DNA from: Candidatus Heimdallarchaeota archaeon
GTDB taxonomy: Archaea > Asgardarchaeota > Heimdallarchaeia > Heimdallarchaeales > Heimdallarchaeaceae
Assembly (NCBI GenBank): GCA_030668875.1
Contig: DAOVER010000039.1
Location: forward strand, 1 to 27,857
Length of the DNA stretch: 27,857 nt
Reading direction: 5' to 3'
The stretch's first letter is position 1. Every line of letters starts with the position of its first letter. The translations under genes were made by a program, and so were the position numbers. This document shows positions 390 through 22,719 of this stretch, piece by piece. The notes below the pieces were generated by a model, which did not search any database, was not told where the DNA came from, and saw nothing but the letters and a program-made list of their open reading frames with translations.

Positions 390-2744
390 ATGAAAAAATT
401 AGCAGTTTTAATTTTGTTATTTATAGTAGTAAATCCTATCACAAGTCAATCCAACACGATTATTTTAGATGACACATTTGTTCCATTGCAATATGTCTCT
501 CATTCACCTTTTGATGTTGATGAAGATTCAGATTTCATTAGTTATGCATTCCCAGGAAATGGATCTTTAATAGATCCGTATATTATTGAAGATTACATTA
601 TAACTACTTCAAATTCATATGGAATTAGGATAAGCAATGTTACAAAATATTTCGTCATACGTAATTGTATGATCGAAAATCAACTCATAGGGGTTCATAT
701 TCAGAACGTAAGTTCAAATCGAACAAATGTTCAATATAATATATGTAAAAATAATAGTGACTATGGAATTAGAATAGAAAATAGTGGTGAGGTTGGAGTA
801 GAGAATAATACATGTCAAAATAATGGCAAGTCAGGAATATATATCTTTAATGGAACAAATTCTTTGATAAAGAGCAATATCTGTGAGTATAATGGTGTAC
901 ATGGCATCTATGTAGAGGATACTGCTTTAACAATGATTACTAAAAATGATTGTTACAACAATTTTCATTATGGAATAAACATTGAAAATTGCAGTTCATC
1001 AGAAGTAGTGGAAAACAGCTGTAATCAGAATCGTGTTTATGGTACTAAGATTTTTGATAGTCCTTCATCGATTTTTTTGAATAATGAACTCAACTCCAAT
1101 TGGAGAGGTGCTTATTTCTTCAGATGTGATTTCAATAATATTTCAAATAACACATGCGAGGATAGTTCAAGCTCAGGATTTACAATAACTAGATGTGAGC
1201 AAATTAACTTTACAAAAAATTTACTAGCAAATAATGATGAAGATGGATTAGATGCATTTTTTATGGACAATTCTATAGTTGATAACAATACATGTATCGG
1301 AAATAGGAAAGCGGGTTTAAGTATCAGAAGTGCGCTTAATTCCACTATTTCATTCAACAACTTAACTAATAATGGGTTAGAAATTGAGGAAACGCTGACT
1401 GAATCATATTCAACATATACTCTATATAACAACACTATCAACAATTTACCTTTTGGTTTTCTTTTACATCTAAGAGATGGAATAATTACAAAGGAATATG
1501 GACAAATGCTTTTAGTTAATTGTTCTAGAACAACTATCGAAGGAAAATCACCAATATCTATTAAACTATCTAATAGTCCTCAAAACACGATTATTAATAA
1601 TAATGTAAAACATAGTGAAATTGGAATTAATCTGATAAATTCAGATTTTTGTGAAATTCTGAATAATTCTATAAGTCATCAGCTTTTTTACGGAATATAT
1701 ACAGAAGATTCTGATCACACCCTCATAGCAAACAATACGATAGGGGGTTTCACTTATGAAGGATTTTATATACGGTATTCTCCAAATTCTGAAATAATAA
1801 ATAATACTATCCAAGATTGTACTATCTGTCTAATTTGGGGATCTGACAGCTCAATTTTTAGTCAAAATACTTTAACTATAGATTATGGTGTAGGATTTGA
1901 ACAATCGTCAGACCTCATTGTTGAAAACAACTACTTCTACAAAGGAGGATTTATTTTTTCAGAGCCTTCTTTAGATTTTCTGACATATACTTGGAATAAC
2001 AATCTGATCGATGGATTACCTTCAATGATTCTGATTGATCTTAATGGTATAACTGTGACTGAAAAATTTGCACAAATTCTACTTATTAACTGTATCAATG
2101 TCATAGTCAAAGATCAGCAGTTTACGAATGTTCCAGAAGGTGTAGCCGTAAGGCAGAGTGAACATATCACTATTAGGAACTGTCTATTTACGAATGGATC
2201 TGGTACTGCAATGTACATCATGTATTCTTCCTATATTGATATCAGAGACAATATAGTCGACAATTATTTCCAAGGTATTCTAATTCGCGAAATGACACCG
2301 TACATCAATATTTCTCATAACACTTTCATGAATAATGCAGCTCAAGGAATTGTGCTTTCTGATGACTACTGTCGAATTACATACAACCTCTTTCAAAACA
2401 ATTCCGCTCACGGGATAAGTATCTATGAAGGACATTCTAACATTTTACATCACAATAATTTTATTGGGAATAATCATGATCACGAATGGGGTACTTCTCA
2501 AGCTCTAGATGAGGGATATTCTAATCAATGGTATGAAGCATCGACTCATCAAGGAAATTTCTGGGATGACTGGAGTGGTTCTGGACCATATATCTTAGAT
2601 GGAGGTAATGTTGACCCTTATCCATTATCTTCCGAAGTTCCAGCTATCATGCCTGAATATTCAGCGAACCTTCTTATAGCTTGCATTCTATCTCTTTTCT
2701 TCGTAATTTTTATTTCGAGAAAACATCGAAAAAAACAACTGTAA
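390..2744 (+). CDS. Secreted, membrane-anchored right-handed parallel beta-helix protein (NosD/CASH-like), 784 aa
   Basis: Signal peptide MKKLAVLILLFIVV, N-cap FPGNGSLIDPYIIE, many I-x-N-N-T-C/G-I-x-I repeats, C-cap GNFWDDWSGSGPY...DPYPL, then MPEYS, a TM helix and RKHRKK. Confidence 0.9.
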   Translation: MKKLAVLILLFIVVNPITSQSNTIILDDTFVPLQYVSHSPFDVDEDSDFISYAFPGNGSLIDPYIIEDYIITTSNSYGIRISNVTKYFVIRNCMIENQLIGVHIQNVSSNRTNVQYNICKNNSDYGIRIENSGEVGVENNTCQNNGKSGIYIFNGTNSLIKSNICEYNGVHGIYVEDTALTMITKNDCYNNFHYGINIENCSSSEVVENSCNQNRVYGTKIFDSPSSIFLNNELNSNWRGAYFFRCDFNNISNNTCEDSSSSGFTITRCEQINFTKNLLANNDEDGLDAFFMDNSIVDNNTCIGNRKAGLSIRSALNSTISFNNLTNNGLEIEETLTESYSTYTLYNNTINNLPFGFLLHLRDGIITKEYGQMLLVNCSRTTIEGKSPISIKLSNSPQNTIINNNVKHSEIGINLINSDFCEILNNSISHQLFYGIYTEDSDHTLIANNTIGGFTYEGFYIRYSPNSEIINNTIQDCTICLIWGSDSSIFSQNTLTIDYGVGFEQSSDLIVENNYFYKGGFIFSEPSLDFLTYTWNNNLIDGLPSMILIDLNGITVTEKFAQILLINCINVIVKDQQFTNVPEGVAVRQSEHITIRNCLFTNGSGTAMYIMYSSYIDIRDNIVDNYFQGILIREMTPYINISHNTFMNNAAQGIVLSDDYCRITYNLFQNNSAHGISIYEGHSNILHHNNFIGNNHDHEWGTSQALDEGYSNQWYEASTHQGNFWDDWSGSGPYILDGGNVDPYPLSSEVPAIMPEYSANLLIACILSLFFVIFISRKHRKKQL

Positions 2745-2900
2745 TATGATTTGCTATTTGGGGTAAATACTTTGCAAGATTTAACGAAAATTCAGTTTTG
2801 TTTACTGGATTATTTAGCTATTATAGCTTTAATTCTCTTCATAGGTGTATTAGTGGGCAATTACGTCTATATGATAAAAGTCAAATGTCCAGGTTCATGA
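2745..2900 (+). pseudogene. Possible gene relic encoding one TM helix
   Basis: Open 52-codon frame with no ATG start (...LLDYLAIIALILFIGVLVGNYVYMIKVKCPGS*); a TTG lies at 2751. Confidence 0.25.
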
Positions 2901-2937
2901 TTAAGCTTAAAAACATCTAATCAATGTAAACATACAA

Positions 2938-3474
2938 ATGAAGATGAATGTAAATGATGTAGAGATACAACCAAAAATACTGATATCATATTACACACGT
3001 TCAGGAAATACTGAGAAACTTGCAAATCAGATAAAGAACCTTGTAGGTGGTGATCTTTTCAGAATTGAAGTAGTTAATGAATATCCTCCCAGTTATCAGG
3101 AAGTTCTCAAAGTTAGTAAGGTAGAAATTGACAATCAGTACAAACCACCAATAAAAAATTATGTAGAAAATATGGACGAATATGATATCGTTTTTGTTGG
3201 TACTCCTAACTGGTACAGTACAATGGCTCCACCAGTTGCAACATTTCTTTCCATGCATGATCTATCAGAGAAGACAATTATCCCTTTTGCAACACATGGA
3301 GGTGGTGGAGAAGCTCGATGCTTAACTGATATTAATGAAATGAGCTCTCAAGCAACTGTTCTAGAAGGAATCGCGATTTACGGTTCACAAGCTGAGACTG
3401 CAAAAAATAAAATGTTAATGTGGTTAAAGAAATTGCAAATATTCAGCAATTCACTAAGAGAACTTAATGACTGA
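2938..3474 (+). CDS. Flavodoxin (Flavodoxin_4-like)
   Basis: FMN-binding motifs YYTRSGNTEKLANQI, FVGTPNWYST and PFATHGGGG. Confidence 0.9.
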   Translation: MKMNVNDVEIQPKILISYYTRSGNTEKLANQIKNLVGGDLFRIEVVNEYPPSYQEVLKVSKVEIDNQYKPPIKNYVENMDEYDIVFVGTPNWYSTMAPPVATFLSMHDLSEKTIIPFATHGGGGEARCLTDINEMSSQATVLEGIAIYGSQAETAKNKMLMWLKKLQIFSNSLRELND

Positions 3475-3551
3475 AATTAATAGAAGTTTTATAAAGAAAA
3501 AGAAATGAATTTATGGTTCCAACCATTTACAATTCAATTCTTTCCTTCCTT

Positions 3552-3650
3552 CTGATCCTCTTCCCCTCAACGCACGTGAGGGGATCCACTTAAACGACGG
3601 TCAGAATGCTTCTGGCAAGTTTGACCAAGTTTCATAACGTGCGCTAGTAA
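3552..3650 (-). mobile_element. Orphan IS200/IS605-type right end or TnpB omegaRNA-like relic (no tnpA/tnpB)
   Basis: The minus strand ends GGATCCCCTCACGTGCGTTGAGGGGAAGAGGATCAG. There is an 8-bp stem (3562-3569/3577-3584), a second hairpin GGTCA/TGACC (3599-3603/3622-3626), and 3637-3643 is complementary to 3571-3577. Confidence 0.4.
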
Positions 3651-3769
3651 GAAATTTTCTTTCTTATATTCTATGGTGTATTAATAGGGAGAGAATCTAC
3701 ATTTATTTAGGTGTTTTACATGTAACTCATGTCTGTCTATATTGAGGAATTGTACAAAATTCACTGAAT

Positions 3770-4504
3770 TCACTTTGTTTTCAAAAAGGTGGTGATTAAA
3801 GCCAAGGTATGCTGCATAATCATTTCATAATCCATTTGGACCCTCACTAATGTTGATTTTCTTAAACTAGTTTCGTTCATCACTCCACATATTAATACAA
3901 ATAAGAAATGAACTATTTGTTCAACTCCCATGTCTGTTTCAATTGTTTTATCTTTTTTTCCATTTGAAACAGCTCTAATCCACAATTCACCTATCCTGAG
4001 CATTTGTACGTAAAATTTTATGAGATATGGTTGTTTAAAATTCTCAATTAATTCATTATATTTGATTGTACCAAGACTTTCCACTATTTCCTCGTGCATT
4101 TCTTCTACTGGAAATAAATCTGTGAAATTTATACGATTAAACCATTCTCTAGCAATTGTGAAACCTACCATGTCAGAAAAAACCTTGAAAATTCTTTCAC
4201 TCAAATATAAAACCTGTTCATATCCCGTCATATCATTAGGAAAATTATTTTCGTTAAAATCATTTTCTTCCTTTAATAGCTCGATTCCCAGACCAAAAAA
4301 AATTTCATCTTTATTCTGAAAATAATGATATATCGTAGTTCGACTAATAAAAGCCTCTTCAGCTATATTTTCAACAGAAATGTCATTAAAATGCTTATCT
4401 AAGAGAAATTTATGCGCAGCTTTAAGTATTTCGCTTCTAGTATTCTCTTTTTTCTTATCACGTAGAGTTTGCTTCTTTTTCGTTAGATCTGTTGATTTAT
4501 TCAT
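3770..4504 (-). CDS. TetR/AcrR family transcriptional regulator
   Basis: N-terminal HTH RSEILKAAHKFLL...ISVENIAEEAFISRTTIYHYFQNKDEIF; transcribed divergently from the ABC-2 exporter. Confidence 0.92.
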   Translation of the reverse strand: MNKSTDLTKKKQTLRDKKKENTRSEILKAAHKFLLDKHFNDISVENIAEEAFISRTTIYHYFQNKDEIFFGLGIELLKEENDFNENNFPNDMTGYEQVLYLSERIFKVFSDMVGFTIAREWFNRINFTDLFPVEEMHEEIVESLGTIKYNELIENFKQPYLIKFYVQMLRIGELWIRAVSNGKKDKTIETDMGVEQIVHFLFVLICGVMNETSLRKSTLVRVQMDYEMIMQHTLALITTFLKTK

Positions 4505-4582
4505 ATATATCTGTTATAAGAACAGTCTATATAAAGTTTTACAAAGAGTAAAGTTTATAAATGGTAATAACTAATTGTATTC

Positions 4583-4602
4583 TGTGTAAAGATTAATACA
4601 CA
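4583..4602. promoter_or_regulatory. Candidate TetR operator
   Basis: Inverted repeat TGTGTA-N8-TACACA in the divergent tetR/ABC intergenic region. Confidence 0.3.
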
Positions 4603-4656
4603 TAATGGTGATTTATATTGCATGTCGAAAAAACTGGAAAAAATGGAGGAGTAATT

Positions 4657-5448
4657 ATGAAAGCGAGTATAAATAAAAAATACGCTAACTCCAATTCCAT
4701 TGAAGTGAAGGATCTAAAGAAGCACTTTACTGGGAAAAGAGGGTTGGAAGATGTTAAAGCAGTTGATGGAGTATCTTTTCAAGTAGAAAATGGAGAGGTC
4801 TTCGGAATTTTGGGTCCGAATGGAGCAGGAAAGTCTACTATTGTTAACATTTTAACAGGTATAAGCTCACCAACAGAAGGAACAGCAATTGTAGGTGGAT
4901 TTAATGTTAAAACCGAGCTTAAACAAATTAAAAAAGTGATAAGCATGTGCCCACAAGAACCTTCTGTTTATAAATTTCTTACAGGTTTTGAGAACATTCA
5001 GTTTTTTGGCAATTTACACCTAATGTCGAAAAAAGAGATAATGGGACGCTCAGAAGAACTATTGAAGATGTTAGGATTATATGAAGCCCGGAAACGGAAA
5101 ACAAAAGGATATAGTGGTGGGATGTTAAGACAACTAAGTCTAATCATTGCGTTGATCAACGAACCCGACATATTATTTCTAGATGAGCCAACAGTCGGAA
5201 TGGACCCTCGAGCTCGACGAAAAGTTTGGGAGTTTCTTGGTTCCATAAAAAAACAAAATAAAACTATCCTTTTAACTACCCATTATATAGAAGAAGCGGA
5301 AGCGCTTTGCGATAGAGTGGCAATAATTGATTATGGAAAGTTGATAGCAATTGGACCTCCACAAAAATTAATTGAGGAGCATGAAGTTAATAATTTGGAA
5401 GAGGTTTTTCTGAAGATAACTGGCAGAAGAATTTTGGAGGGAATCTAA
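4657..5448 (+). CDS. ABC-2 (DrrA/CcmA-like) exporter ATP-binding subunit
   Basis: Walker A GPNGAGKS, signature YSGGM, Walker B ILFLDEP, H-loop LTTHY. ATG 4657 was chosen over TTG 4618 because GGAGGA lies at 4645-4650. Confidence 0.95.
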   Translation: MKASINKKYANSNSIEVKDLKKHFTGKRGLEDVKAVDGVSFQVENGEVFGILGPNGAGKSTIVNILTGISSPTEGTAIVGGFNVKTELKQIKKVISMCPQEPSVYKFLTGFENIQFFGNLHLMSKKEIMGRSEELLKMLGLYEARKRKTKGYSGGMLRQLSLIIALINEPDILFLDEPTVGMDPRARRKVWEFLGSIKKQNKTILLTTHYIEEAEALCDRVAIIDYGKLIAIGPPQKLIEEHEVNNLEEVFLKITGRRILEGI

Positions 5449-5450
5449 TC

Positions 5451-6206
5451 ATGAAAACAAAAAGAATACTTACCATTGTTAAGATGGAGCTGTTAAGAGT
5501 ACTAAGAGACCCAGTTGTTTTAGTCTTCACAGTATTGTTAGTACCATTGTTAATACTAATTTTTGGGTTAACTATGGGTTCTAATTATGGATGGCATTCT
5601 GAATATACTATATTCGAAATAATGCTTCCAGGATTTCTAACTTATGCCTGTTTAATGACAATATATGATGTTGCTGCATCAGTTGCTGGTGAACGTGCGT
5701 TAGGTATACAAAGAAGAATTAATACAACTCCATTAACTTCCGCTGAATATATTCTTAGTCAGTTGATATCCTACACGATTAAACCACTTATTCAACTATT
5801 TTTGGGATTTGGTGTTGCTCTTATTGTTGGATATCGACCATTAGCCACAGCTGCAGGATATTTGTTGGTGATTGTGTTTTTAGTGCTTCTCACATTTTGC
5901 TCTGTAGGATTTGGACTGATAACAGCTCACTTTGCAAAAAGTGCTGGTGCAGCAGGTGGATTAGCTTTTATTTTCATCGTACCTCAACAGATATTTGCCA
6001 CCTTTATTCCTCCAGTATTTATAGGGGCGGATTCATTTAAATGGATCTTTCCGAGTTTCTATGCTACTGAAGGTTTAGGCTATATTTTTGCAGGAAGCTC
6101 TTTAACTGACTTATATTTATGGATGATACTGGGAATACTTTTCGCTATTAGTATTGTAATATATGTTATTGGTATATTAGTATATGAGAAAAATAAAAAT
6201 AAATGA
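5451..6206 (+). CDS. ABC-2 type exporter permease
   Basis: About six TM helices with ERALGIQRRINTTPLTSAEYILSQ and WIFPSFYA motifs; starts 2 nt after the ATPase stop. Confidence 0.92.
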   Translation: MKTKRILTIVKMELLRVLRDPVVLVFTVLLVPLLILIFGLTMGSNYGWHSEYTIFEIMLPGFLTYACLMTIYDVAASVAGERALGIQRRINTTPLTSAEYILSQLISYTIKPLIQLFLGFGVALIVGYRPLATAAGYLLVIVFLVLLTFCSVGFGLITAHFAKSAGAAGGLAFIFIVPQQIFATFIPPVFIGADSFKWIFPSFYATEGLGYIFAGSSLTDLYLWMILGILFAISIVIYVIGILVYEKNKNK

Positions 6207-6474
6207 AATCTATCCTAAGAAAATGGGTGTGATTAATTTTACCACGCTCAAATACCTTTTTTCTTTAAATAAATTTGGATTTTTTCAATATACTATTTCT
6301 AAGGTGAAATAAGCATCGTAGCATTGTAGACAAGGTTATAGAAAAAAGAATAAAAAGGAATTAATAGGGTACAAATATATTCTCTTTTTCTTTTTTATTA
6401 GTATATTTCTAACAAACTTTTTATTCAAGATACTAGAATATAATATATTAGAACTAATTTTATGAGGATAAAAC

Positions 6475-8010
6475 ATGAAATGTGTTTCAAACCTATCTAA
6501 AGCCTTTGTAAAAGGGCTTTTCTGCATATTGATCATGCTTATATGTTTAAGTTTTCATCCATCTATAAATACTAAGTTTGCGACTCTCCCTCCTGATCAT
6601 GGAGTAAGTTTGTCTTTGACACCACATGAACCAATTTCAATTATTTCTGATAGTGATTTTGGTCCTTCAAAATATAATTATTCAGGATCTGGAACAGCTG
6701 AAGATCCTTATGTTATTGAAGGATATAGTATCACAACAACGAGTCTTATTGGTATTAATATTGCTGGCACAACTAAATATTTCATTATTCGTAATTGCTA
6801 TATTGACGCAAGTGATTACGGCATTTATATCAGTGATGTATCAGATGGTACAGCTACTGTCTCCAATAACACGTGTTATTATAGCGGTCGTGGCATCTGG
6901 CTTTCTTATTCTGACAGTTCTACTGTCAATAATAACACATGCAAATTCAATGACGAAGATGGCATAACCCTAGATTATTCTGATAAATCTTTAGTTGCAA
7001 ATAATACTTGCAATTGCAATGGTGATTATGGTATCCATCTTAGTAGATCTGAGAATTCTATTGTTACTAATAACTTGTGTAGAAGTAACATGTGGAGCAT
7101 CTCAATCGGAGTTTCTCATAACTCTACTGTTACTTATAATAGGTGTTATAATAATTTCGTAGGATTATCTTTTGGAAATAGTAGGAGTTGTACTGCTGCT
7201 AACAACTCTTGTAATAATAACGGTATAGGGATTTCTGTTAAATTATCCTCCTCTTGTATTATATCTAACAATACATGTATATCTAATGCAGATTATGATG
7301 GCATCACCCTAACTTCTTCTGATTATTGTTTCCTTACCAACAACCTTCTAAAAGATAATAGAGGTGAGGGTATCTATTTATCAACTGATTCTGATTTTAA
7401 TATAATCCACCATAACGTTTTTGTTCATAATCGAGTTACTCCCCAGGCAACAGATTGGGGTTTCAATAATATATGGTTTGAATTTGCAGCTTTAGAAGGG
7501 AACTACTGGGATGATTGGTCCGGAACCTTAGAGTATTCAATCGGCGGTGGAGCTGATTCTAGTGATCCTTATCCTCTAGGTGTGCCTAGTGTATATTATG
7601 GTGCTCCTCTAATTGAATCAGTTCTTCATTCACCCCTCTCTCCTACAGAAAAAGACAATGTCAGAATAGAATCTGTTGTTACTAGTTTTTATGGTATGCA
7701 ATCGGTTGCTCTACATTACAGAATTAATGACTTATTTTGGAGAGTATTGAATATGACACTTGATTATGATGATGTGTACAGCCTAAAAATTGGTTCTTTT
7801 CCAATTAATGCAACAATAGAATATTATGTTAGTGCGGTAGGTAATTCTATTTACCATAATATTACGATTAATGACAACTCTAGTTTATTTTACTCATTTA
7901 CAATTAGAGCTTATATTTCAGATCCACAAATTTCTACTTATCTGATTCCTTGGTTTACTGTGTCCTTCTTGTTCTTTGTTTTAGTTGTAGTAAAAAGAAG
8001 AAGAAAATAA
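6475..8010 (+). CDS. Beta-helix surface protein A1 with a C-terminal Ig-like domain and TM anchor, 511 aa
   Basis: GSGTAEDPYVIE cap, NNTC repeats, EGNYWDDWSG...DPYPL, an Ig-like segment (PLIESVLHSPLSP...IEYYVSA...YSFTI), TM helix and KRRRK. Confidence 0.9.
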   Translation: MKCVSNLSKAFVKGLFCILIMLICLSFHPSINTKFATLPPDHGVSLSLTPHEPISIISDSDFGPSKYNYSGSGTAEDPYVIEGYSITTTSLIGINIAGTTKYFIIRNCYIDASDYGIYISDVSDGTATVSNNTCYYSGRGIWLSYSDSSTVNNNTCKFNDEDGITLDYSDKSLVANNTCNCNGDYGIHLSRSENSIVTNNLCRSNMWSISIGVSHNSTVTYNRCYNNFVGLSFGNSRSCTAANNSCNNNGIGISVKLSSSCIISNNTCISNADYDGITLTSSDYCFLTNNLLKDNRGEGIYLSTDSDFNIIHHNVFVHNRVTPQATDWGFNNIWFEFAALEGNYWDDWSGTLEYSIGGGADSSDPYPLGVPSVYYGAPLIESVLHSPLSPTEKDNVRIESVVTSFYGMQSVALHYRINDLFWRVLNMTLDYDDVYSLKIGSFPINATIEYYVSAVGNSIYHNITINDNSSLFYSFTIRAYISDPQISTYLIPWFTVSFLFFVLVVVKRRRK

Positions 8011-8191
8011 TTTTCTTGTTCTATTGATTTGCTTCTTTGAACTTATAATCCTAAACCTATACTTACTTAAGCAATTCTATAATTAATTAACTTTCAATGT
8101 TTATTGGAAATCCATTCTATAAAACTTATATACTAATGTCATCTATTATTAGTTTGCATATCTTATTTAATGAATAAGGAGCAAAGAAAAA

Positions 8192-8617
8192 ATGGCAATT
8201 AATGAAATCGGTCAACAAATAAAATCTATTTATACATGGATCTGATTGAATGTTTTCCTTTTCTGGTTAATATTTCCACCTATTGTTCTTCTAGTTAAAT
8301 GGTTTAATCTTGCTAGCATTACAAAGGCACAAAATGATCCTGGATTAACAGAAGCTGGTGATAAACTATTCTTGTCTCTAGTACTACTTTTGCTTCCATT
8401 TGGTATAACACAACTAATAGCTGTGATATTCTTCATATCTTACTATGGCAAAATGGAAGCTTGGGCTGGAGCAAACAACAGAGGAGTAGCAGCTACTGGT
8501 TTTGGTCAAGTTAAAACAGCTATGATTCTGAACATAATTCCATTAGGAATAACTCAATTTATTGGTTTGATTATGTTCTTAATTGGTTTTCCAAAAGCTG
8601 GAAACGGCATGTTGTAA
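8192..8617 (+). pseudogene. Small multi-pass membrane protein with an in-frame TGA at 8243-8245
   Basis: ATG 8192 (AAGGAG upstream) reads MAINEIGQQIKSIYTWI*LNVFLFWLIFPP..., in frame with the 8246-8617 ORF. Confidence 0.6.
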
Positions 8618-8695
8618 ATTTCTTAAACTCTTTTCTTTTTCTTCTTTTTCTAGCAATCAGCATTCTTTTATTCATGATAAAAATAATAACAACAT

Positions 8696-8935
8696 TCTAA
8701 AATCTAAATGTAAATATTTATATTGTAATTTTTCTGTTTATGTTATTATGCGGAGGATGTTTTTTAGAAAAAAGAATAAGCTGATATTTTTGGGTTTGAT
8801 TTTTGCATTATCTCTACTTACTGTCTCCAATTTAAATTTGATTTCTTTTGGAGTTCATGCCAAAGTATCAGTTGATCATACTGAATTTTCTTTTGATTAC
8901 ATAGAACGAGGTTCTATTTCTATTATTGGAGATGC
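8696..8935 (+). repeat. Promoter and leader of B1, duplicated at about 11939-12178
   Basis: Identical 30-mer at 8775-8804 and 12018-12047. The TTTATA box lies 31 and 30 nt before the respective ATGs. Confidence 0.9.
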
Positions 8936-10730
8936 AGACAGTGATTTAGACCCAATTAATGGTATCGTTACTGGAAATGGTTCTGAATCTGACCCTTATG
9001 TTATAGAGAATTATAAAATAGAAAATACAGACAATGTTGGTGTTTATATCCAAGATACTTCGGTTAGTTTTATCATAAGAAATTGTTACATTGATACTGA
9101 AAATTGGGGGCTTTATATCCTTGGTACTTACTCTGGTAAACTTACAATTTACAATAATGTGATCGTTAACCATGATTCAGAAGGAATACTTATCTATCGT
9201 TATCCAGGCTGTGAAATATTCAATAATACTGTTCAATACAATCATCAAGGTGGTATAGATATTCATGATTCTAGTTACAGCTCAATTTACAATAATACTT
9301 GCAAGAGTAACCTTGCTGATGGTATTTCTACATCAACTTCAGATAATGTCTTAGTTGAAAATAATACTTGTAATTATAATAATTGGGGAATTTCTACTTG
9401 GTTTAGTGAAAACAGTATTGTCAAAGAAAATTATTGTTACAGCAATACTTTTGATGGTATAAGAGTTATTAGCGGAGTTAATATAAGTATCATCTCAAAT
9501 GAGGTTCTAGCTACATCTGTTTATGGTATTAGCATAGAATCTGATTCAATAAATAATACTATACATCATAATGATATTATTGACAATGGGGGAACTTCAT
9601 CTCAAGGATTTGATGAAGGAATAGGAAATATTTGGTATGATAATCTCACTTTGGAAGGTAACCTGTGGAGCGATTGGACGGGAGGATATTACTACCTTGA
9701 TGGATCGGCAGGATCTTATGATATGTATCCATTAGTCAATTTAGACTCTCTTGATTTCATACAGATTCATTCTGATGTTGGATTCAAAACCTTAAATCTC
9801 GAAGGTGATGGAACAGAGTTGCAACCATATATCCTTGAAGATCTTGTAATTGATACAAATAATTTAATTGGAATATCAGTTAAAGGGACAACGAAACATT
9901 TTATCATACAAAACTGCACTATAAGTAGTAGTGGAACAGGAATATCCTTACGAAACATTTTAAATGGTACAGCTACGATTCACAACAATTCTTTGATTAA
10001 CAACGATGACTATGGAATATATCTTGACAATTCTTCATCAACTTTGATTTCTCATAATTATTGTAATAATAGTTTTTATGGTGGAATCCATGTTCAACTT
10101 TCAAATTCCTGTGAAATATTAAATAACGTCTGCGAGGAAATGTATTGGGAAGGAATAAACACCTTGTATACAGATGGGAATACAATTATAGGAGACAATA
10201 TCTGTAGAAATTGCTCTACTGGGATATTAGTCTTTTATTCAAGTGAGGCCTCTATATTTAACAACACTAATCATTACAACATACATAATGGAATAGAAAT
10301 ATGGAGAAGTACTAATTCTACCTTGTATGAGAATAATTGCAGTTTTAGTTTTGCGGGAATACGATTTACTGAATCTAACCAATCTCTAATAAGTTATAAT
10401 TACTTAACTCAAAATCACTGTGGATTGTATCTTAGTATTGGTTCTTATAGTAATATCATACACCATAATCATTTCATAGACAATTCTGGTTTTCAAGCTA
10501 GAGATGAAGGAACGGGAAATATCTGGTATGATATAACAACTAGCGAGGGCAACTGGTGGTGTGATTGGACCGGAGGAGAATATCTGATAATAGGCTTAGC
10601 AGGTTCAGTAGATCTTTTCCCATTAGGAACTCCTGTCATTTCAGAGTTTTTAACTTCTTATAGTTTTATTCTGCTCTTTGCTCAATTATCAATGGCCATG
10701 GTAATCTTGTGGATTAAAAAGAGAAGATAA
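8748..10730 (+). CDS. Beta-helix surface protein B1 with two tandem beta-helix modules, 660 aa
   Basis: Each module runs from a GxGxxxxPYxxE cap to an EGNxWxDWTGG...DxxPL cap; the C-terminus is VISEF, TM helix, KKRR. The start was moved from 8583 to ATG 8748 because it precedes the signal peptide and is conserved with the paralogue at 11991. Confidence 0.88.
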   Translation: MRRMFFRKKNKLIFLGLIFALSLLTVSNLNLISFGVHAKVSVDHTEFSFDYIERGSISIIGDADSDLDPINGIVTGNGSESDPYVIENYKIENTDNVGVYIQDTSVSFIIRNCYIDTENWGLYILGTYSGKLTIYNNVIVNHDSEGILIYRYPGCEIFNNTVQYNHQGGIDIHDSSYSSIYNNTCKSNLADGISTSTSDNVLVENNTCNYNNWGISTWFSENSIVKENYCYSNTFDGIRVISGVNISIISNEVLATSVYGISIESDSINNTIHHNDIIDNGGTSSQGFDEGIGNIWYDNLTLEGNLWSDWTGGYYYLDGSAGSYDMYPLVNLDSLDFIQIHSDVGFKTLNLEGDGTELQPYILEDLVIDTNNLIGISVKGTTKHFIIQNCTISSSGTGISLRNILNGTATIHNNSLINNDDYGIYLDNSSSTLISHNYCNNSFYGGIHVQLSNSCEILNNVCEEMYWEGINTLYTDGNTIIGDNICRNCSTGILVFYSSEASIFNNTNHYNIHNGIEIWRSTNSTLYENNCSFSFAGIRFTESNQSLISYNYLTQNHCGLYLSIGSYSNIIHHNHFIDNSGFQARDEGTGNIWYDITTSEGNWWCDWTGGEYLIIGLAGSVDLFPLGTPVISEFLTSYSFILLFAQLSMAMVILWIKKRR

Positions 10731-10998
10731 TTTCTTCTCTTTTCTTCTCTTTGGTTAAATATTAAATAAACTATTTTCTTTTTCCTCTAGTCATTATCTC
10801 ATTATATTTATTATGTTATTCTAATCAGAATATTTACAAATTTAGAGGATTAATCTTTCAGCGAAGAATAATCTCTCTCTGTATAGGAAATCATCTTTTG
10901 TGAAAAACCTTAAAGCTGTTTTGATAAATTAAAGGGTAATATTAAGTAAACTGTAACGAATAATATAAATACGTATTACTTATAATTAGGGATTGAAC

Positions 10999-11841
10999 AT
11001 GAAACGAGTATCAAACCACTCTAGAACATTAGTTAGAGGACTATTCTATATCACAATTATGCTTTTAGGATTAAGTATATTACCAATAATGAATACTAAT
11101 TCAGCTATTGAATCAAATAATCTTCAAGTTAGTTTCTCATTGACACCACATGATCCAATATCAATTCTTTGTGATAGTGATTTTGGTCCTTCAAAATATA
11201 ACTTTCCTGGATCTGGAACAGAAAAAGATCCTTATATTATTACAGGATATAGGATTACAACAACTATCGCCTCTGGTATTCATATTTCTGATACAACGAA
11301 ATATTTCACTATTCGTAACTGCAATGTTAACACAAACTATTCTGGAATTTATATCGATGATGTAACTGATGGTACAGCAACTGTCATTAACAACATATGC
11401 AACAATAACAACATAGGCATCTCTCTTGAGAATTCTGATTTTTGTGTCATTACTTACAATCTTCTAGAAGAAAATAAACACTTTGGAGTATTCTTAGATC
11501 CCGATTCTGATGATAGTATCATTCACCATAATAACTTTGTAGCTAATAATCTTGGTTGTGTTTTTGGTATTACTTCCCAAGCGTGTGATCATGGAACAAC
11601 TAATACTTGGTATGATACTGAAACACTCGAAGGTAACTATTGGGATAATTGGTCAGGAACAGGAAGCTATTCAATTGGGGGTGAGGCTGGTGCTAGTGAT
11701 CCTTTTCCTCAAAATGAATTATTGAACCCTCCAATTACAGAACCCAGTAATAATACTGACGTGCAAATCTTAGTGCTTATACTCAGTCTAGCAATAGTTC
11801 CTTTATCTATTATAACTAGGAAGCGAGTAAAAAACAAATGA
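10999..11841 (+). CDS. Short beta-helix surface protein A2, paralogue of A1
   Basis: LSLTPHxPISIxxDSDFGPSKYN is shared with A1, with an identical 30-mer at 6648-6677 and 11172-11201. It has few repeat turns, no Ig domain, a TM helix and RKRVKNK. Confidence 0.88.
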   Translation: MKRVSNHSRTLVRGLFYITIMLLGLSILPIMNTNSAIESNNLQVSFSLTPHDPISILCDSDFGPSKYNFPGSGTEKDPYIITGYRITTTIASGIHISDTTKYFTIRNCNVNTNYSGIYIDDVTDGTATVINNICNNNNIGISLENSDFCVITYNLLEENKHFGVFLDPDSDDSIIHHNNFVANNLGCVFGITSQACDHGTTNTWYDTETLEGNYWDNWSGTGSYSIGGEAGASDPFPQNELLNPPITEPSNNTDVQILVLILSLAIVPLSIITRKRVKNK

Positions 11842-15173: not shown

Positions 15174-15330
15174 TGAAAAGACCATTCCATTAACAGATTT
15201 TATCAAAGTAACTTTCACAAAAGGAATATATAATTATTACGTATATATGCTGAAAAAACAAGAGGTACTCAATCATTTAGGAAAAATTTATTTAGATAAG
15301 CATATCGTTTACTGTTTGAGAGTGTACAGA

Positions 15331-16243
15331 ATGATTAATGATAATACACTTGATTTTGGTGTTATAACAGTACAAAATGCTCCTTGGGAAAAACTTGTTG
15401 AACGTTGGAAGTTCATAGAAGAAGCGGGTTTTGATAGTGTTTGGGTTGCAGATCACTTTGCTCATTGGATAAAGAAAACAATGACCTTTTTTGAAGCTTG
15501 GTCGACCTTATCTGGTCTAGCATGCGAAACTTCTAGAATCAGAATTGGGACCTTAGTTTCAGCTATCCATTAGCGTCATCCTGCATGGTTAGCTAAACAA
15601 GCACTTACAATTGATCACATCAAATGGCAGATTAGAACTTGGTCTAGGATCTGGTGGTAGTAGTAAGATTGAATATTCAATGACTGGTATCGAAGAATTG
15701 AGACCAGGTGAGAAGGTAAAACGATTTCGCGAATATGTGGAGATTGTTGATCAACTTCTCAGAAATGCTGTTACAACTTATCATGGAAAATACTACCAAC
15801 TTGAAGAAGCAACGATGCAACCTGATACAATACAGAAACCCCGACCTCCAATAACCATAGGGGCACACAGACCCAAAATGTTGAAGCTTGTTGCTCGTTA
15901 TGCTGATACTTGGAATACCTTGGGTGATATCACACCAATAGAAGAGACCATCGAAAAACTCCGAAAACAGAATGATTTATTAAATGAATATTGCAAAGAA
16001 ATTGGTCGTGATCCACGAACACTTCGAAGATCTTTCGGGATATATGAACGAGAAGCAGCAAATAATTTAAGTCCCATGAGACTTTTTAAATCTCCAGAGA
16101 TACTCAAAGAGGTAGTAAAACAATGTAATGATGTAGGATTCAATGAAATACTTATACCTTACCCATTAGTTAAAGATGAAATCCCTGATTTTGAGCAAAT
16201 AGCACAAGAAGTAGTTCCTGAACTTAGAAAATTATATTCATAA
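15331..16243 (+). pseudogene. LLM-class flavin-dependent oxidoreductase (luciferase-like), disrupted
   Basis: AGFDSVWVADHF, RIRIGTLVS, RHPAWLAKQALTIDH, NGRLELGLGSG and PITIGAHRPKMLKLVARYADTWN motifs. There is an in-frame TAG at 15571-15573 and a frameshift near 15619-15622. Confidence 0.85.
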
Positions 16244-16982: not shown

Positions 16983-18929
16983 GTGTCATCGAGAAATTTT
17001 CTTTGTATAATGATAATTTTATCAGTATTTTCCTCTTCTTACATGAACCTAAGCACTGTTTCTTCATACGAATTAGAAAACATTCACCTCACTCTTATTT
17101 GTAATGCTGGTGGTGTTCTTCCTTCATATATTTACGGAGCAGCAAATTATCTAGAAGACTTAGGTTTGAATGTTAAAGTTGAAAACCTAGAATGGAGTGT
17201 GTTTATTTCACGGTTGTTAACTACAAGTGATTATGATTTAGCCTTTTTAGGCTTTTCTGGAGGGGGATACAGCCCAGATATGAGAGATATTTATACTGAA
17301 AATGGTTCGTTGAATATATTTGGTTTAGATAATAGTATTCCTTACGTTCAAACAAGCGAAGATATGCAAAATGAAGCTGTTACTGAAGTGAATTTAGTTA
17401 CTAGACAGCAAATGTATTTCGATTGGCAAAATATGTTTATGGATAAAATCGTTCCAATGTTGCCTTTTTACAGTTATTTAAAATATCAAGCTAGCTGGTC
17501 AAATCTAGTGGGTTATAACTCTTCTTGGGGAATTGTCGATTGCTTACCTTATATGCACTTTGTTTCTCTACATGAGAATCAGTCGTCAATCTCAGAATTT
17601 AACTTGGCTGATGCTGCCTGGAGAGATTTGAACCCACTACAAACAGACGATACATCCAGCTCTTTCATATACAACTTAATTTCTGAACCAGTTGTAGGAT
17701 GGTCACAGGAGATGAAGCCAGTTAAAAATGCTTTAGTTAAAGAATGGCTTCCTATCGATGAGTATCATTACAGATTTACTTTAAGAGACAATATATTTTG
17801 GAACCCTTCATATAATATATCATTTAGAAACGAGACATCCCCTCCATTAGATCCTTTAACAACTCCTTTGCTTACAGGTTTAAAAGAGGGTTTTGTTAGT
17901 GATGGTACCAATCTAAAGGTTACAGCTAAAGATGCAGTTTTTACTCTCCTTGCTGCTGGGAATGATTTAGTTAGTAATGATATCTACAAACATGATTGGA
18001 TCGCAGATTGTTATGTTGATCCAATAGATGAGTACTCTTTTCATATATTAGTTGATGGTGATTCCACCACTCTTGAACTAGAAAAGTATGTTGATTTCTG
18101 GTATAAGTTATCAACAAACATTTTGCCAGAGTTTTTCTTAAATTCGACTGATTCAACTGTCAGCTATACTTCTGGTGGAGTAGAATGTATTGGTCTATAT
18201 GAGGGGATTCAAAATACAACCGAATGGAAGTCATTTAGCTACTCTCCTTTTTCTTGTGGCAAATACATGCTTGATTTTCATATAAACGATTCAATAACAG
18301 TTTTACGAGCAAGCCCATATTGGTTTGGTAAGGGGCTCATAGATGGAACATCTCAAGTTTTAGATCTCGATACAATTAATATTCACATAATACCTGATAT
18401 TTCTGCTGAACTATCTTTATTCAAGGATGGATATCTTGATTGGACGAGTTTAACTGCTTTTCCTACAGAAAGAAAATTGATGCAAAAAGATTCAAGATTT
18501 GATGTACAATCCACCCTATCTGGTAGCTTCACTTTTCTTGCTTTCAATATTCAAAAATCATTTATAGGCGGCTCAAATAATGATAAATTTCTTACATTAG
18601 AAGGAAAAACTGAGTATACTAAAGGAGCTGCGATTCGCAAAGCACTCTGTTATTCCATTGATCGTGTCGAAATGAATAATCAGTTCAGTGATGGAGAATA
18701 TTTTATTACAGATAGTCCAATGTATCCAATTACAAAATTCTACTACAATGATGATATTGTCAAATATGATTATAACCTAACACTAGCTGAAGAATGGTTA
18801 TCTGCAGCACTAGATCCTATTCAAACAAGTACACCATATCCTAATTTAATCCAAATCTCAGTAGTTTTATTGATGATATGTTATGTAATAAAAAATAAAG
18901 AAAAAAGGAAACTTTCAGCTCAAAATTGA
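16983..18929 (+). CDS. Family-5 (OppA/DppA/NikA-like) solute-binding protein, apparently circularly permuted, with a C-terminal TM anchor
   Basis: YLEDLGLNVKV, DYDLAFLG, RQQMYFDWQ...VPMLPFY, LNPLQTDD, WLPIDEYHYRFTLRD, TAKDAVFT, CGKYML, RKALCYSIDR and YDYNLTLAEEWL motifs. Confidence 0.85.
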   Translation: MSSRNFLCIMIILSVFSSSYMNLSTVSSYELENIHLTLICNAGGVLPSYIYGAANYLEDLGLNVKVENLEWSVFISRLLTTSDYDLAFLGFSGGGYSPDMRDIYTENGSLNIFGLDNSIPYVQTSEDMQNEAVTEVNLVTRQQMYFDWQNMFMDKIVPMLPFYSYLKYQASWSNLVGYNSSWGIVDCLPYMHFVSLHENQSSISEFNLADAAWRDLNPLQTDDTSSSFIYNLISEPVVGWSQEMKPVKNALVKEWLPIDEYHYRFTLRDNIFWNPSYNISFRNETSPPLDPLTTPLLTGLKEGFVSDGTNLKVTAKDAVFTLLAAGNDLVSNDIYKHDWIADCYVDPIDEYSFHILVDGDSTTLELEKYVDFWYKLSTNILPEFFLNSTDSTVSYTSGGVECIGLYEGIQNTTEWKSFSYSPFSCGKYMLDFHINDSITVLRASPYWFGKGLIDGTSQVLDLDTINIHIIPDISAELSLFKDGYLDWTSLTAFPTERKLMQKDSRFDVQSTLSGSFTFLAFNIQKSFIGGSNNDKFLTLEGKTEYTKGAAIRKALCYSIDRVEMNNQFSDGEYFITDSPMYPITKFYYNDDIVKYDYNLTLAEEWLSAALDPIQTSTPYPNLIQISVVLLMICYVIKNKEKRKLSAQN

Positions 18930-19013
18930 GTTATATCTTAATTAACAAAACATGAAGTTTGTAGCAAGTACTAATAGCTTTTTAAATTTGTAATTCTTTC
19001 CTAGTTTGTTAAA

Positions 19014-19580
19014 ATGACAGGACAAGTTGCAGATGCCTTTCTTTATCAAGATGAAGGCTATTCAATCGTAGGTATAAATGGTGGTTCATTATTTGAACCA
19101 TTGGCATATAACATCGAAACCATAGCTGCTTCAACAGCATGCTGGCGAGGTTTTCAAGCATTTTACACTCTACTGGATAATAAATTAATGTTGAAGGAAC
19201 TTTTTCTGAATTCTAAAAAAGAAGAAATAATTAATGAGCAAAAACCGAAAAATGTGAAAAGTATGTTTAGATTTCGATACCCTAAGCTAAATCTAGAAAT
19301 CAATTTCACTGGAAAACTTCTAATTGCTAGAGATTTTATTTCAGAACTTTATGTTCATATGGGTTTTCAAAGTCCTGAGAGTTTTAAAACTGTTTTAGAA
19401 TTTATTTTTGAGGAAGGGGTCTTAACAGAAGTTATAGATCTTTCAGAACAAATGGAGAAATTACGTGAAAATGATTATGAACAGCGAACTAAACCAAATG
19501 ATCCCAATGATTCATTTGAAGTTGATAGATGGATTAGAGACAGATTTTCACTCGAATACGGCACAAAGAATGATGATTAA
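19014..19580 (+). CDS. Conserved hypothetical protein (MTxQ...STACWRG motif)
   Basis: 188-aa ATG-started ORF. The N-terminus MTGQVADAFLY...LFEP...STACWRGFQAFY resembles a widespread uncharacterised family from recollection only. Confidence 0.75.
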   Translation: MTGQVADAFLYQDEGYSIVGINGGSLFEPLAYNIETIAASTACWRGFQAFYTLLDNKLMLKELFLNSKKEEIINEQKPKNVKSMFRFRYPKLNLEINFTGKLLIARDFISELYVHMGFQSPESFKTVLEFIFEEGVLTEVIDLSEQMEKLRENDYEQRTKPNDPNDSFEVDRWIRDRFSLEYGTKNDD

Positions 19581-19662
19581 TTAATTGAGTGTGACTTGTT
19601 TATTCTTCTATTCAGATGTTTTAATGAAAGGTTTATTAGTATTCAAACTAATAATTACCAAA

Positions 19663-21651
19663 ATGCTAACCAAAAAGTATCTCACTAAATTAAAGATTAT
19701 TACCTTCGTTTTTTGCATAGTTATTATTTTTTCCATCTTACAATCTTCAACATCCGTATATGGTACTTCAGAATTTCATGTAAATCTAGTGATGAAAGTT
19801 GGAGGGGGTGGTGTTCGTCCTGATTATGGTCTTTTCATAGCTCAATATCTTAGAGAGATTGGTATAGATGTAGAAATTAAGGTTGAAGAATGGACTGCAT
19901 TCATGGGAACAATTTTATTAACACATGATTTTGATTTAGTGATTCTTGGACTATCAGGAGGTAGCTCAATCCCGGATATGAGGGAAGTTTATACTGAAAA
20001 CGGACAATTGAATCTTTTTGGTTTGAATACAACTATTCCTTACTGCCAAGAAAGTGAAGATTTACAAAATCAAGCTCTAATAACATCTGACTTTTATGAA
20101 AGACAAATAATACTTCAGGAGTGGCAACAACTAATGATGGATCAAATTATTCCAATGCTCCCACTCTACTCCCCGCGAAGTTATGTTGCTACTTGGGCAA
20201 ATTTAGTTGGATATGATGCTAGATGGGGTATTGCAAATAGCTTGCCTTATATGGAATTTATTGGTTATCATGAAGGTCAACTTTCGCTTGAAGAATTTAG
20301 AATTGCTGATGCAGACTGGGAGAGGTTAAACAATCTTCTATTCTCTGATAGAGCAAGTAACCTTATTACCGATTTGTATTCAGAAAAAATAATTGGTTGG
20401 AGTCCAGATATTGCTCCTCTTAAGACTGGTTTAATTGTAGACTGGCAAGAAATCAACTCTAATCATTACAAATTCTTTTTACGCGATAACGTATTTTGGA
20501 ATCCAAGCTACAACATTACAGATCGTGATGAGAATTCAATCCCACTTGACTCTATATCTACCAATGATTTAATGACCGGTTTGAAAGATAACCAATATAG
20601 TAATGGAACTAATCAGATGGTTACAGCAAAAGATGTGCTTTTTACTCTTCTCTGTTATGCTAACCCAGTGTTGTATGAGGATTTAGAAACTGATCATCTA
20701 AGATGGCTATCTGATATCTATATTGATCAAGTCGACCCTTTAGCGTTTCACGTTCTAATAGATGGTGATCCAAATACTTCTGAAATAGAGATGTATGTGG
20801 ACTTTTGGGTTGACTTAGATTTAGACATTCTACCAGAATTCTTTTTGAACAGTTCAGAACCTACAATCACCTATACAACTGGAAATGTCAAATGCATAGG
20901 GATTTTCTCAGACATAGTCAATACAACAGAATGGATTTCGTTCACAAAATCCGGATTTGGATGTGGGAAATATCTTTTGGATTATACAAACGACTATGAA
21001 ACGGTTCTACGTGCCAGCCCCCATTGGTTCAAATTTGGTGTAATTGATGGAACAGAACAAGATTTAGATATTGAGAGCTTCATCATTAAAAAAATACCTG
21101 ATTTAACTTCTGCTTTTAACGAATTTAAAGCAGGAAAATTAGATTTGTTAGAGGTAGCCCGTTTTTATCAAGAATTAAGATCTTGGGATCCGCATTATCA
21201 GAAAATTGATATTCAATCGTTTCTCTTAAATTCCTTCAGTTTCATGGGTTTCAATTTAAGGAGGCCTTTCATTGGAGGCGTAGATAATTCTGAGTTCTTA
21301 ACTGATGAAGTTGTAGAAAACTATACCAAAGCATGTGCTGTTAGAAAAGCAATCTGCTATTCGATTGATAGAGACGAGATGAACCAACTGTTACATGATG
21401 GAGAGTGTCTGATAGTACACAGTGTACTTCAACCCTTCTATGCGTACTACTATTTTAATGATATCATAAAATATGATCAAGATTATGATGCAGCTCGATT
21501 ATGGTTAAGTTATGCCGGATATATTGAATATGAAACTATAGTTGCTATTTTTCCAAGCGTGTTTATCATTTTTGCTGTTGTAACTTCAGTAGTACTACGT
21601 AAAAAATTTCTCAAAAAAATCGTCCAGTGTGAAAGAAAACTTCTCTCTTGA
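19663..21651 (+). CDS. Second family-5 solute-binding protein, same permuted order, with a C-terminal TM anchor
   Basis: IAQYLREIGIDVEI, DFDLVILG, ERQIILQEWQ...IPMLPLY, WQEINSNHYKFFLRD, TAKDVLFT, CGKYLL, RKAICYSIDR and YDAARLWLSYAGY motifs. The start is uncertain (19624 or 19663). Confidence 0.85.
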   Translation: MLTKKYLTKLKIITFVFCIVIIFSILQSSTSVYGTSEFHVNLVMKVGGGGVRPDYGLFIAQYLREIGIDVEIKVEEWTAFMGTILLTHDFDLVILGLSGGSSIPDMREVYTENGQLNLFGLNTTIPYCQESEDLQNQALITSDFYERQIILQEWQQLMMDQIIPMLPLYSPRSYVATWANLVGYDARWGIANSLPYMEFIGYHEGQLSLEEFRIADADWERLNNLLFSDRASNLITDLYSEKIIGWSPDIAPLKTGLIVDWQEINSNHYKFFLRDNVFWNPSYNITDRDENSIPLDSISTNDLMTGLKDNQYSNGTNQMVTAKDVLFTLLCYANPVLYEDLETDHLRWLSDIYIDQVDPLAFHVLIDGDPNTSEIEMYVDFWVDLDLDILPEFFLNSSEPTITYTTGNVKCIGIFSDIVNTTEWISFTKSGFGCGKYLLDYTNDYETVLRASPHWFKFGVIDGTEQDLDIESFIIKKIPDLTSAFNEFKAGKLDLLEVARFYQELRSWDPHYQKIDIQSFLLNSFSFMGFNLRRPFIGGVDNSEFLTDEVVENYTKACAVRKAICYSIDRDEMNQLLHDGECLIVHSVLQPFYAYYYFNDIIKYDQDYDAARLWLSYAGYIEYETIVAIFPSVFIIFAVVTSVVLRKKFLKKIVQCERKLLS

Positions 21652-21693: not shown

Positions 21694-22719
21694 ATGACTG
21701 ATACTGTATGTGCTTACTTGTTGGGTAGTGAACCTTCGACAAGAGAGAACCTTGCTAGACAACTTGGTAAGAAAGGAACTTCTTCTGATGTTTGTTTATA
21801 CAATTATGACAAGGATTTCACACTGGAGGTGGTAGACCCCCTACGGTATCCTGACAAACCTCTTGCATTGTTCCAAACTATCTTCATGACAGATGTACCT
21901 ATAGTATTGATACCACTTACTGGTCCTGATATTCATACAGCTGAATTCGGATTACTTCTCGAATCACTTAGATTTGAAAATGGTATCATAGCAATTGTTC
22001 ATGAGGGAGAATATTTTGATGTTGACCAAATTGAGCAGAAAATCCAGAAAATGTTTTCTAATCTTCTCTTAAACAATTATCCAATTTTGAATGTTGATTT
22101 AACAAAAGGAGAAACTGTTAATGAGCTGAAATTATTGATAAAAGAAAAATCATCTGCTAGACCTTCATTCATGTGGGCAGAAAAAGATCATTCAAGAGTA
22201 GATGTTGATCATGTTTTTCCAGTAAAGGGAATAGGAACTGTTATACTAGGAAGAGTTAGAGCTGGTAGCTTGAAAAGAGGAGAAACTTTACATGTTTTTC
22301 CCTCAAAAAGAAACTGTATACTTCGCTCAATTCAAATAAGTGATGTTGAGTATAATGAAGCTGAAACAGGAAAAAGAGTAGGGCTTGCTCTTCGTGGATT
22401 ATTACCAAAAGATGTTCAAAGAGGATTTGTTCTTTCTAATAGTATCAGCTGGACTATTTCTTCAGAATTAGATGTAAAATTACGTATTGCTCCTTATTCT
22501 AAACTACCAGAAGAAGGTAAAACAAGGCATTTGATTGTTGGTCTCCATGCAGTACCTGCAAAGGTTTTAACATGTGCTCCAATCAAGGATGAAGACCCAG
22601 GTATGTTTTGCATCTCATTAAAATTAGATCAAGAAATAGCTTTCTTTCATGAAGAACCTGCACTTCTGATTGATTTGAATGGTAAACCAAAAACTATTGG
22701 ATTTTGTAAGCTAGTTTAA
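21694..22719 (+). CDS. Archaeal SelB-like elongation-factor homologue (aSelBL type) with a degenerate G domain
   Basis: LGKKGTSSDVCLYN and YPDKP motifs, plus EF-Tu domain II VDHVFPVKGIGTVILGRV...LRSIQ...GKRVGLALRG. No GxxxxGK[ST] P-loop is present. Confidence 0.85.
   Translation: MTDTVCAYLLGSEPSTRENLARQLGKKGTSSDVCLYNYDKDFTLEVVDPLRYPDKPLALFQTIFMTDVPIVLIPLTGPDIHTAEFGLLLESLRFENGIIAIVHEGEYFDVDQIEQKIQKMFSNLLLNNYPILNVDLTKGETVNELKLLIKEKSSARPSFMWAEKDHSRVDVDHVFPVKGIGTVILGRVRAGSLKRGETLHVFPSKRNCILRSIQISDVEYNEAETGKRVGLALRGLLPKDVQRGFVLSNSISWTISSELDVKLRIAPYSKLPEEGKTRHLIVGLHAVPAKVLTCAPIKDEDPGMFCISLKLDQEIAFFHEEPALLIDLNGKPKTIGFCKLV

Follow-up and report, generated by a model that had tools for sequence, protein, structure and literature searches.

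Two neighbouring genes on the forward strand of contig DAOVER010000039.1 from a Candidatus Heimdallarchaeota archaeon were found to encode solute-binding proteins (SBPs) of family 5 in which the two sequence blocks of the mature chain occur in exchanged order. The whole stretch of DNA that was analysed, hereafter the window, is 27,857 nucleotides long and corresponds to contig C53 of genome G000 (3.23 Mb, 99 contigs). It is nearly certain that the products of gene 1 (P0001, 648 aa; positions 16983-18929, + strand; assigned from its open reading frame (ORF), translation, Pfam match and similarity to P0002) and gene 2 (P0002, longest ORF 688 aa; positions 19585-21651, + strand) are genuine circular permutants of the cluster C (SBP_bac_5) fold. 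The two proteins share 48% identity across 609 residues, and their permutation was found to form a family rather than to be a one-off. It is a real, conserved and functional-looking permutation of a well-known fold and not a new kind of system.

The exchanged order, which goes far beyond what chance would give, was identified by comparison with proteins of known structure. In a single-sequence search of the PDB, residues 73-211 of P0002 matched residues 368-503 of Bacillus subtilis AppA (E 4.5e-08), with residues 582-646 matching AppA 279-344 in the same search, i.e. in swapped order. A family profile (A1), built from 47 sequences, matched 40 cluster C structures, and its match to Helicobacter pylori DppA (6ofq_A, whole-sequence E 6.4e-17) was rotated, with chain residues 42-103 corresponding to profile positions 215-275, residues 294-372 to 537-616 and residues 384-518 to 47-181, the break falling between chain residues 372 and 384. 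Every match of the window proteins, whether by sequence or by fold, was to cluster C and none to the MglB-type proteins of cluster B, and the bilobed cluster C fold with its extra domain was recognized in them. The Pfam model SBP_bac_5 (cut-off 32.4 bits) gave scores of 88.7 bits for P0001 and 77.6 bits for P0002. Positions ~4-281 of this model were matched only in the C-terminal two thirds of the proteins, at residues ~249-649 (for P0001, positions 4-276 at residues 249-609), and positions 292-353 were matched upstream in the same ORF, with neither protein following the model from 1 to 368 in one pass. Two partial matches in swapped order had been anticipated by a first-pass annotation made from the sequence alone, and the motifs that it quoted were found at the places given in both genes. 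No single collinear full-length alignment to canonical family-5 proteins, the outcome against which that annotation had staked its claim, was obtained.

A block-swap test was then performed: by script, the family alignment had its two blocks of columns put back into canonical order, and the profile was rebuilt. Against P0268, a Syntrophomonadaceae protein that is the best canonical relative of the window family, the profile in native order matched in two rotated pieces (64.5 and 43.1 bits), while the un-permuted profile matched in one stretch running over the former cut (profile positions 224-552 to residues 222-561, 115 bits). An AlphaFold model of P0002 computed with the family alignment had a mean predicted local distance difference test (pLDDT) score of 85.6 and a predicted template modelling score (pTM) of 0.77, with pLDDT above 90 at the junction and the insertion described below. 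A separate model of residues 60-236 (pLDDT 86) was found to align to chain residues ~338-520 of the same cluster C structures. Foldseek comparison of the model with the PDB resulted in only partial matches (TM score by target 0.25-0.49), as expected of a sequential aligner applied to a permutant, and these were not used as evidence. The exchanged block order is thus confirmed by the rotated PDB matches, the AlphaFold models, the block swap and a set of close canonical relatives (see below), with sequence, structure prediction and the same relatives also supporting a cut just after the 'AG' helix, where the first-pass annotation had placed it.

The chain is predicted to run from a signal peptide through canonical residues ~345-507 (DppA numbering), a junction of ~10 residues, canonical residues 1-344 and a transmembrane anchor to a Lys/Arg-rich cytoplasmic tail. 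The relocated block would consist of the second half of lobe 2 and the last strand segment of lobe 1, with the signal peptide and anchor keeping their positions at the gene ends and only the mature blocks being swapped. In gene 1, the signal peptide (residues ~1-29; 16983-17069), read from the sequence as a polar start followed by a hydrophobic stretch, lies at the same position as in all family members. It is followed by the relocated block (residues 30-200, equivalent to canonical ~345-507; 17070-17582), placed by column mapping from P0002 and by the swapped-order PDB matches, and by the block equivalent to canonical 1-344 (residues 201-610; 17583-18812), which ends at the A..WL..A helix. 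Its C-terminal transmembrane anchor (18843-18890), succeeded by a Lys/Arg-rich tail, was likewise read from the sequence. Translation of gene 2 probably begins at Met14 (19624), the start given for database protein P0005, or at Met27 (19663), with the signal peptide spanning residues ~27-61 (19663-19767) and composed of a Lys-rich start, a hydrophobic core and then SSTSVYG, as read from the sequence. The relocated block of gene 2 (canonical ~345-507) covers residues 62-232 (19768-20280), the junction of the old C-terminus with the old N-terminus residues 223-240 (20251-20304; pLDDT ~93-94), and the block equivalent to canonical 1-344, ending in WLSYAGY, residues 233-648 (20281-21528). Within the latter lies a subfamily-specific insertion of ~40 residues (residues 306-345; 20500-20619), delimited by conserved columns and modelled with pLDDT 93-95. 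The anchor (residues 651-671; 21535-21597), recognized from the sequence and as a helix in the model, precedes an RKK tail. All of these features are on the + strand.

The junction proper was identified as GYHEGQ.SL.EF, a segment of ~10 residues in which H229 and Q232 (P0002 numbering) are invariant. A longer conserved motif, W.NLVGY...WGI...LPYM.F, had been put forward as a new linker between the old termini. It proved to be mostly native C-terminal tail, as in P0002 it aligns with the C-terminal tail of canonical relatives, which in P0292 reads W.NYTKKPGGVFTSFNPQTMIFM. Narrow hidden Markov models built from the canonical blocks of Thorarchaeota-type relatives failed to pick up the corresponding blocks in the subfamily of the window, and the junction was therefore placed from a collinear alignment of all proteins sharing the cut of the window proteins (type A). 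The proposed insertion of ~35 aa between RDN.FW and VTAKD is real, being ~35-40 residues long, well conserved and confidently modelled (between RDNVFW and VTAKD at residues 306-345 of P0002, and at residues 274-312 of P0001). A sister subfamily and the Thorarchaeota-type family skip profile positions 276-311, and the insertion thus marks the window's own subfamily. In this subfamily the anchor starts ~4 residues after the AGY motif, and the beta-hairpin that follows AGY has been lost. We take the hinge crossings of DppA to lie at ~262/263 and 478/479. With these boundaries, the permutation would leave both crossings intact, from which we expect the Venus-flytrap closure to persist; the two termini, and with them the membrane tether, would shift from lobe 1 to lobe 2.

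A junction profile (A3) gave weak junction-spanning matches in other Asgard families, and five such loci were examined. Four of these (L004, L005, L007 and L008) were found to be permuted at the same place as the window proteins, with Pfam profile positions 1-287 matched at residues ~240-580, after which the protein ends; the remaining one (L006) has its cut elsewhere. The family of L007 is large, with members labelled Thorarchaeota, Promethearchaeota or Hermodarchaeota. Among the best 120 matches of L007, 29 were collinear and 91 had their blocks exchanged, at 55-67% identity. Alignment of L007 with the canonical protein P0292 gave the joints directly, with residues 29-219 corresponding to 375-568, residues 205-545 to 30-379 and the anchor at 545-577 to 551-582. 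As read from the sequences, the signal peptide and the stalk with its anchor are retained in place between the L007-type permutant and its canonical relatives. The cut site of this Thorarchaeota type lies inside DG(I/V)REFP(D)GV | TP..(F/Y).LWVLSWDD, and 7-17 residues link the former C-terminal tail (FNPQT.I(F/Y)M) with the former N-terminus ((F)VMAY). The canonical-order relatives P0292 and P0313, both named 'ABC transporter substrate-binding protein' of Candidatus Thorarchaeota at NCBI, share the signal peptide, stalk and C-terminal anchor of L007 but have the usual block order, and they are distant from the window subfamily (15-47 bits with its profile). They illustrate the state from which a permutant arose.

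A search for relatives of the window proteins returned 220 homologues, all collinear with the query, the nearest being named Candidatus Heimdallarchaeaceae or Heimdallarchaeota. Exhaustive searching of 1.84 billion representatives with the profile yielded 153 clusters at E<=1e-30, and among the matches listed all full-length ones were collinear with the permuted profile, with the exception of the canonical P0268. When 399 Asgard species genomes were searched with the junction profile, strong junction-spanning matches were obtained without exception in the window's family (29 genomes) and in another family of its class (12 genomes), with weaker ones in at least 10 more Asgard families. A junction match at E<=1e-4 was present in at least 83 of the 399 genomes, a lower bound as the profile is biased towards Heimdall sequences. 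All named sources of permuted proteins were Asgard. The earlier description of the family as lineage-specific consequently holds at the level of the Asgard archaea; it does not hold for a single lineage, given that the same cut occurs in several Asgard families, that the order appears to have switched repeatedly and that a second type of permutation exists.

The window's genome was found to contain ~16 SBP_bac_5 genes, of which one is canonical and ~15 are permuted. The permuted set comprises nine complete copies that resemble the window proteins and are frequently arranged as tandem pairs, together with one that lacks the insertion, one 'single-lobe' copy with an internal deletion and several divergent type-A copies. 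A C-terminal hydrophobic helix with a Lys/Arg tail is present on all SBP_bac_5 copies of this genome. The 'single-lobe' paralogue (344 aa; G000:C22:51581-52612, - strand) matches only positions 29-165 and 516-617 of the family profile, its middle ~350 positions being cleanly deleted with the signal peptide and anchor kept.

The differently permuted locus L006 represents a second permutation (type B). In its protein (L006:1256-3025, + strand; G145:C32), residues 30-334 correspond to chain residues ~222-518 and residues 346-547 to ~20-223 of many cluster C structures. Type B is the dominant form in the two Thorarchaeota-type genomes inspected (G037 and G145), where most SBP_bac_5 genes show Pfam positions 143-364 followed by 2-145 in one ORF. 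On contig C39 of G037 it occurs in a tandem array (~50.5-62.8 kb), and it is also present within ORFs of 2520 and 2587 aa in G037/G145. Type B resembles the type A of the window in belonging to the same family, in its closure of the old C-terminus onto the old N-terminus (junction profile 31-172), in length and in tethering, but differs in that the cut point lies elsewhere. It was not found among the SBP_bac_5 genes surveyed in the window's genome. A homologue search with L006 returned six proteins without names. In the Atlas, the commonest taxa of its look-alike clusters were Thorarchaeota, Thermoplasmatota and Heimdallarchaeota, for which block order is not shown there. Permuted modules were also identified within longer proteins. 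P0159 (1772 aa, partial, labelled Heimdallarchaeota at NCBI) contains two complete permuted modules in tandem (residues 141-690 and 857-1409), and its middle therefore reads in canonical order; P0197 (1695 aa) contains one permuted module followed by ~1000 more residues.

Several explanations for the origin of this arrangement were considered. Tandem gene pairs, present in several places, are a setting in which mis-assembly or faulty gene calling could join the 3' part of one SBP gene to the 5' part of another. The architecture is, however, found in hundreds of proteins from independent assemblies, including the single-contig genomes G026 and G074. It lies in uninterrupted ORFs, which open with a signal peptide and close with an anchor. 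There is also a syntenic orthologue, a metagenomic locus (L009) with proteins 88-93% identical, against which the ratio of nonsynonymous to synonymous substitution rates (dN/dS) is 0.27 for P0001 and P0002. Independent assemblies, intact ORFs, synteny and dN/dS effectively refute an artefact, to which only a vanishingly small probability can be given. A single ancient permutation in one lineage-specific family, with no reversals or repeats, would agree with the uniform cut of all the type-A families examined, whose chains begin with one and the same strand behind the signal peptide and stop just past the AG(Y) helix, and with the profile of the old-C-to-old-N junction matching divergent members too. 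Phylogeny makes this scenario improbable. In a 50-row tree of canonical relatives and type-A proteins un-permuted in silico, in which long branches are present, forcing the 32 type-A proteins to be monophyletic cost 152.6 log-likelihood units (approximately unbiased test, p 0.00024), the tested group having been named after a first look at the tree. In a second tree (25 rows, 524 columns), confined to the Thorarchaeota-type clade and its close relationships (55-76% identity), at least two changes of block order are required, and a single change was allowed in 0 of 200 bootstrap trees. Furthermore, a window-like profile favours the bacterial canonical protein P0268 (129 bits) over the Thorarchaeota-type canonical proteins (15-47 bits). 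The case against a single origin is tempered by the post hoc naming of the group and by gene conversion, which could mimic switches. From these three results it follows that the block order switched at least three times among Asgard archaea, a count that gene conversion among paralogues could inflate. That the flips are adaptive and recurrent, with Asgard archaea repeatedly changing block order, perhaps in both directions, through recombination in tandem arrays at no fewer than two cut points, and are not a neutral accident, is offered as a tentative proposal that we do not expect to hold in full. If true, a flip would move the tether from lobe 1 to lobe 2, altering the presentation of the receptor to shared translocators or permitting modules to be concatenated into giant surface proteins.

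With respect to function, the genes of P0001 and P0002 are very probably functional and under purifying selection, as suggested by the dN/dS value above. Each window SBP carries 7-10 N-x-S/T sequons. The window's genome encodes two Opp-type permease/ATPase operons (contigs C38 and C52), neither with an adjacent binding protein; in the former, an OppB-type permease of 870 aa (L001:5556-8168, - strand; G000:C38) has an N-terminal LVIVD-repeat beta-propeller fused to BPD_transp_1. The window proteins would be glycosylated receptors, tethered to the cell surface, that bind a ligand and pass it on to the Opp/Dpp-type ATP-binding cassette (ABC) translocator of C38 or C52, so that ~15 paralogous receptors would share two translocators. 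That they still serve as receptors of ABC importers is the most economical reading and one we somewhat favour, by analogy with bacteria, where multiple orphan OppA/DppA paralogues sharing one translocator are well documented, Borrelia and Pseudomonas being examples. Taken jointly, the permutation and this shared-translocator role make up an account that we consider likely.

Three observations weigh against an importer role. The 27.9-kb window contains no Opp-type permease or ATPase, and the link to a transporter is therefore one that we infer. The Asp of the GW.GD motif aligns with a Gly (G-L-S-G-G) in the window family and with a Tyr in the Thorarchaeota-type proteins, and is an Asp in P0268. 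This residue, which we take to be D408 of DppA (the mutant R383D+D436R of entry 8z1z being named as support), binds the peptide alpha-amino group in DppA and OppA. Its replacement by Gly makes DppA-like peptide binding doubtful, and judging from this alignment the ligand is probably not a peptide with a free N-terminus bound in the manner of DppA. Finally, with so few residues separating AGY from the membrane helix, docking may be possible or may not. The absence of the canonical peptide-anchoring Asp would also suit a different use of the permuted folds, as surface sensors, adhesins or substrate-capturing envelope modules with no remaining part in ABC import. The copies are without exception orphans, distant from permease genes, and ~15 of them face only two translocators. 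Related modules lie inside very long proteins (P0159, P0197 and the 2520- and 2587-aa ORFs of G037/G145). In addition, the only canonical-order SBP_bac_5 gene of the genome (698 aa; L003:5376-7472, - strand; G000:C3) is flanked by the genes of a HAMP-domain protein and a PAS histidine kinase. Such neighbours point to sensing rather than transport as the role of that gene, and thus to sensor use of the fold in this genome. On the other hand, orphan SBPs that share a translocator are known from bacteria, as mentioned above. Both Opp-type operons lack a binding protein of their own and therefore need one from elsewhere, and purifying selection has kept the fold and the hinge segments. A non-importer role is judged unlikely.

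The surroundings of the two genes were also annotated. The window has a G+C content of ~32%. Between the SBP genes lies an ORF of 188 aa (P0003; 19014-19580, + strand), included here for context, with no Pfam family, signal peptide or membrane segment. Its counterpart occupies the equivalent position in L009, with 91% identity and a dN/dS of 0.22, and this conservation in synteny indicates a real gene. The neighbours comprise NosD/beta-helix proteins, an ABC-2 exporter, a TetR regulator, a DUF3160 protein, an EF-Tu-domain-2 protein, CarS (CDP-archaeol synthase) and a subtilase. Four paralogous NosD/right-handed beta-helix proteins (784, 511, 715 and 282 aa) lie at positions 390-11841, clustered with the TetR regulator and with the ABC-2 type exporter (ATPase at 4618-5448, permease at 5451-6206). 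A luciferase-like monooxygenase was found in two adjacent ORFs on the + strand (15247-15573 and 15611-16243, matching Pfam positions 16-75 and 95-209), a split that may reflect a frameshift, a pseudogene or a sequencing error. Downstream of gene 2, a 341-aa protein (21694-22719, + strand) matches EF-Tu domain 2 and shows no match to the GTPase domain; it is syntenic with the SBP genes in L009 (95% identity, dN/dS 0.12).

The window proteins were compared with canonical cluster C proteins, namely Escherichia coli DppA (1dpe, 1dpp, 8z1z), AppA (1xoc), H. pylori DppA (6ofq) and OppA (1ola, 3tcf). Unlike these, they have a rotated chain cut after DppA residue ~344, both termini in lobe 2 instead of lobe 1, as predicted above, and a C-terminal transmembrane anchor almost directly after the AG helix. 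Their subfamily carries the ~40-residue insertion and does not conserve the amino-binding Asp of the DppA type, and their genes are without an adjacent OppBCDF operon. The only natural permutant of an ABC binding protein found in the open-access literature searched was Tp0684 (TpMglB-2) of Treponema pallidum, which still binds ligand and is the founder of 'Type Ic/Cluster Bc' (PMC4990184). Its authors noted that homologues with the permutation are mostly found in settings where tethering of the binding protein is probable (PMC4990184), which is also the situation of the window proteins. TpMglB-2 differs from them in being a bacterial protein of cluster B (glucose/galactose type) that is not homologous at the family level, and its permutation, which concerns the N-lobe, brings in a fourth hinge crossing. 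The two thus share only the principle of natural binding-protein permutation. No description of permuted family-5 or permuted Asgard binding proteins was found in the same literature, and in public annotation the proteins of the window family are named plainly 'ABC transporter substrate-binding protein'.

As the permuted cluster C set is highly expanded, uses two cut points and has canonical relatives of ~60% identity by which the joints are given exactly, it provides an unusually clean natural system for studying the origin and cost of permutations. The partial Pfam matches show that models aware of domain order are needed, as counts of Asgard 'peptide transporters' depend on such proteins. 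The predicted move of the tether to the other lobe would, in turn, offer a test of how receptors dock on Opp/Dpp translocators.

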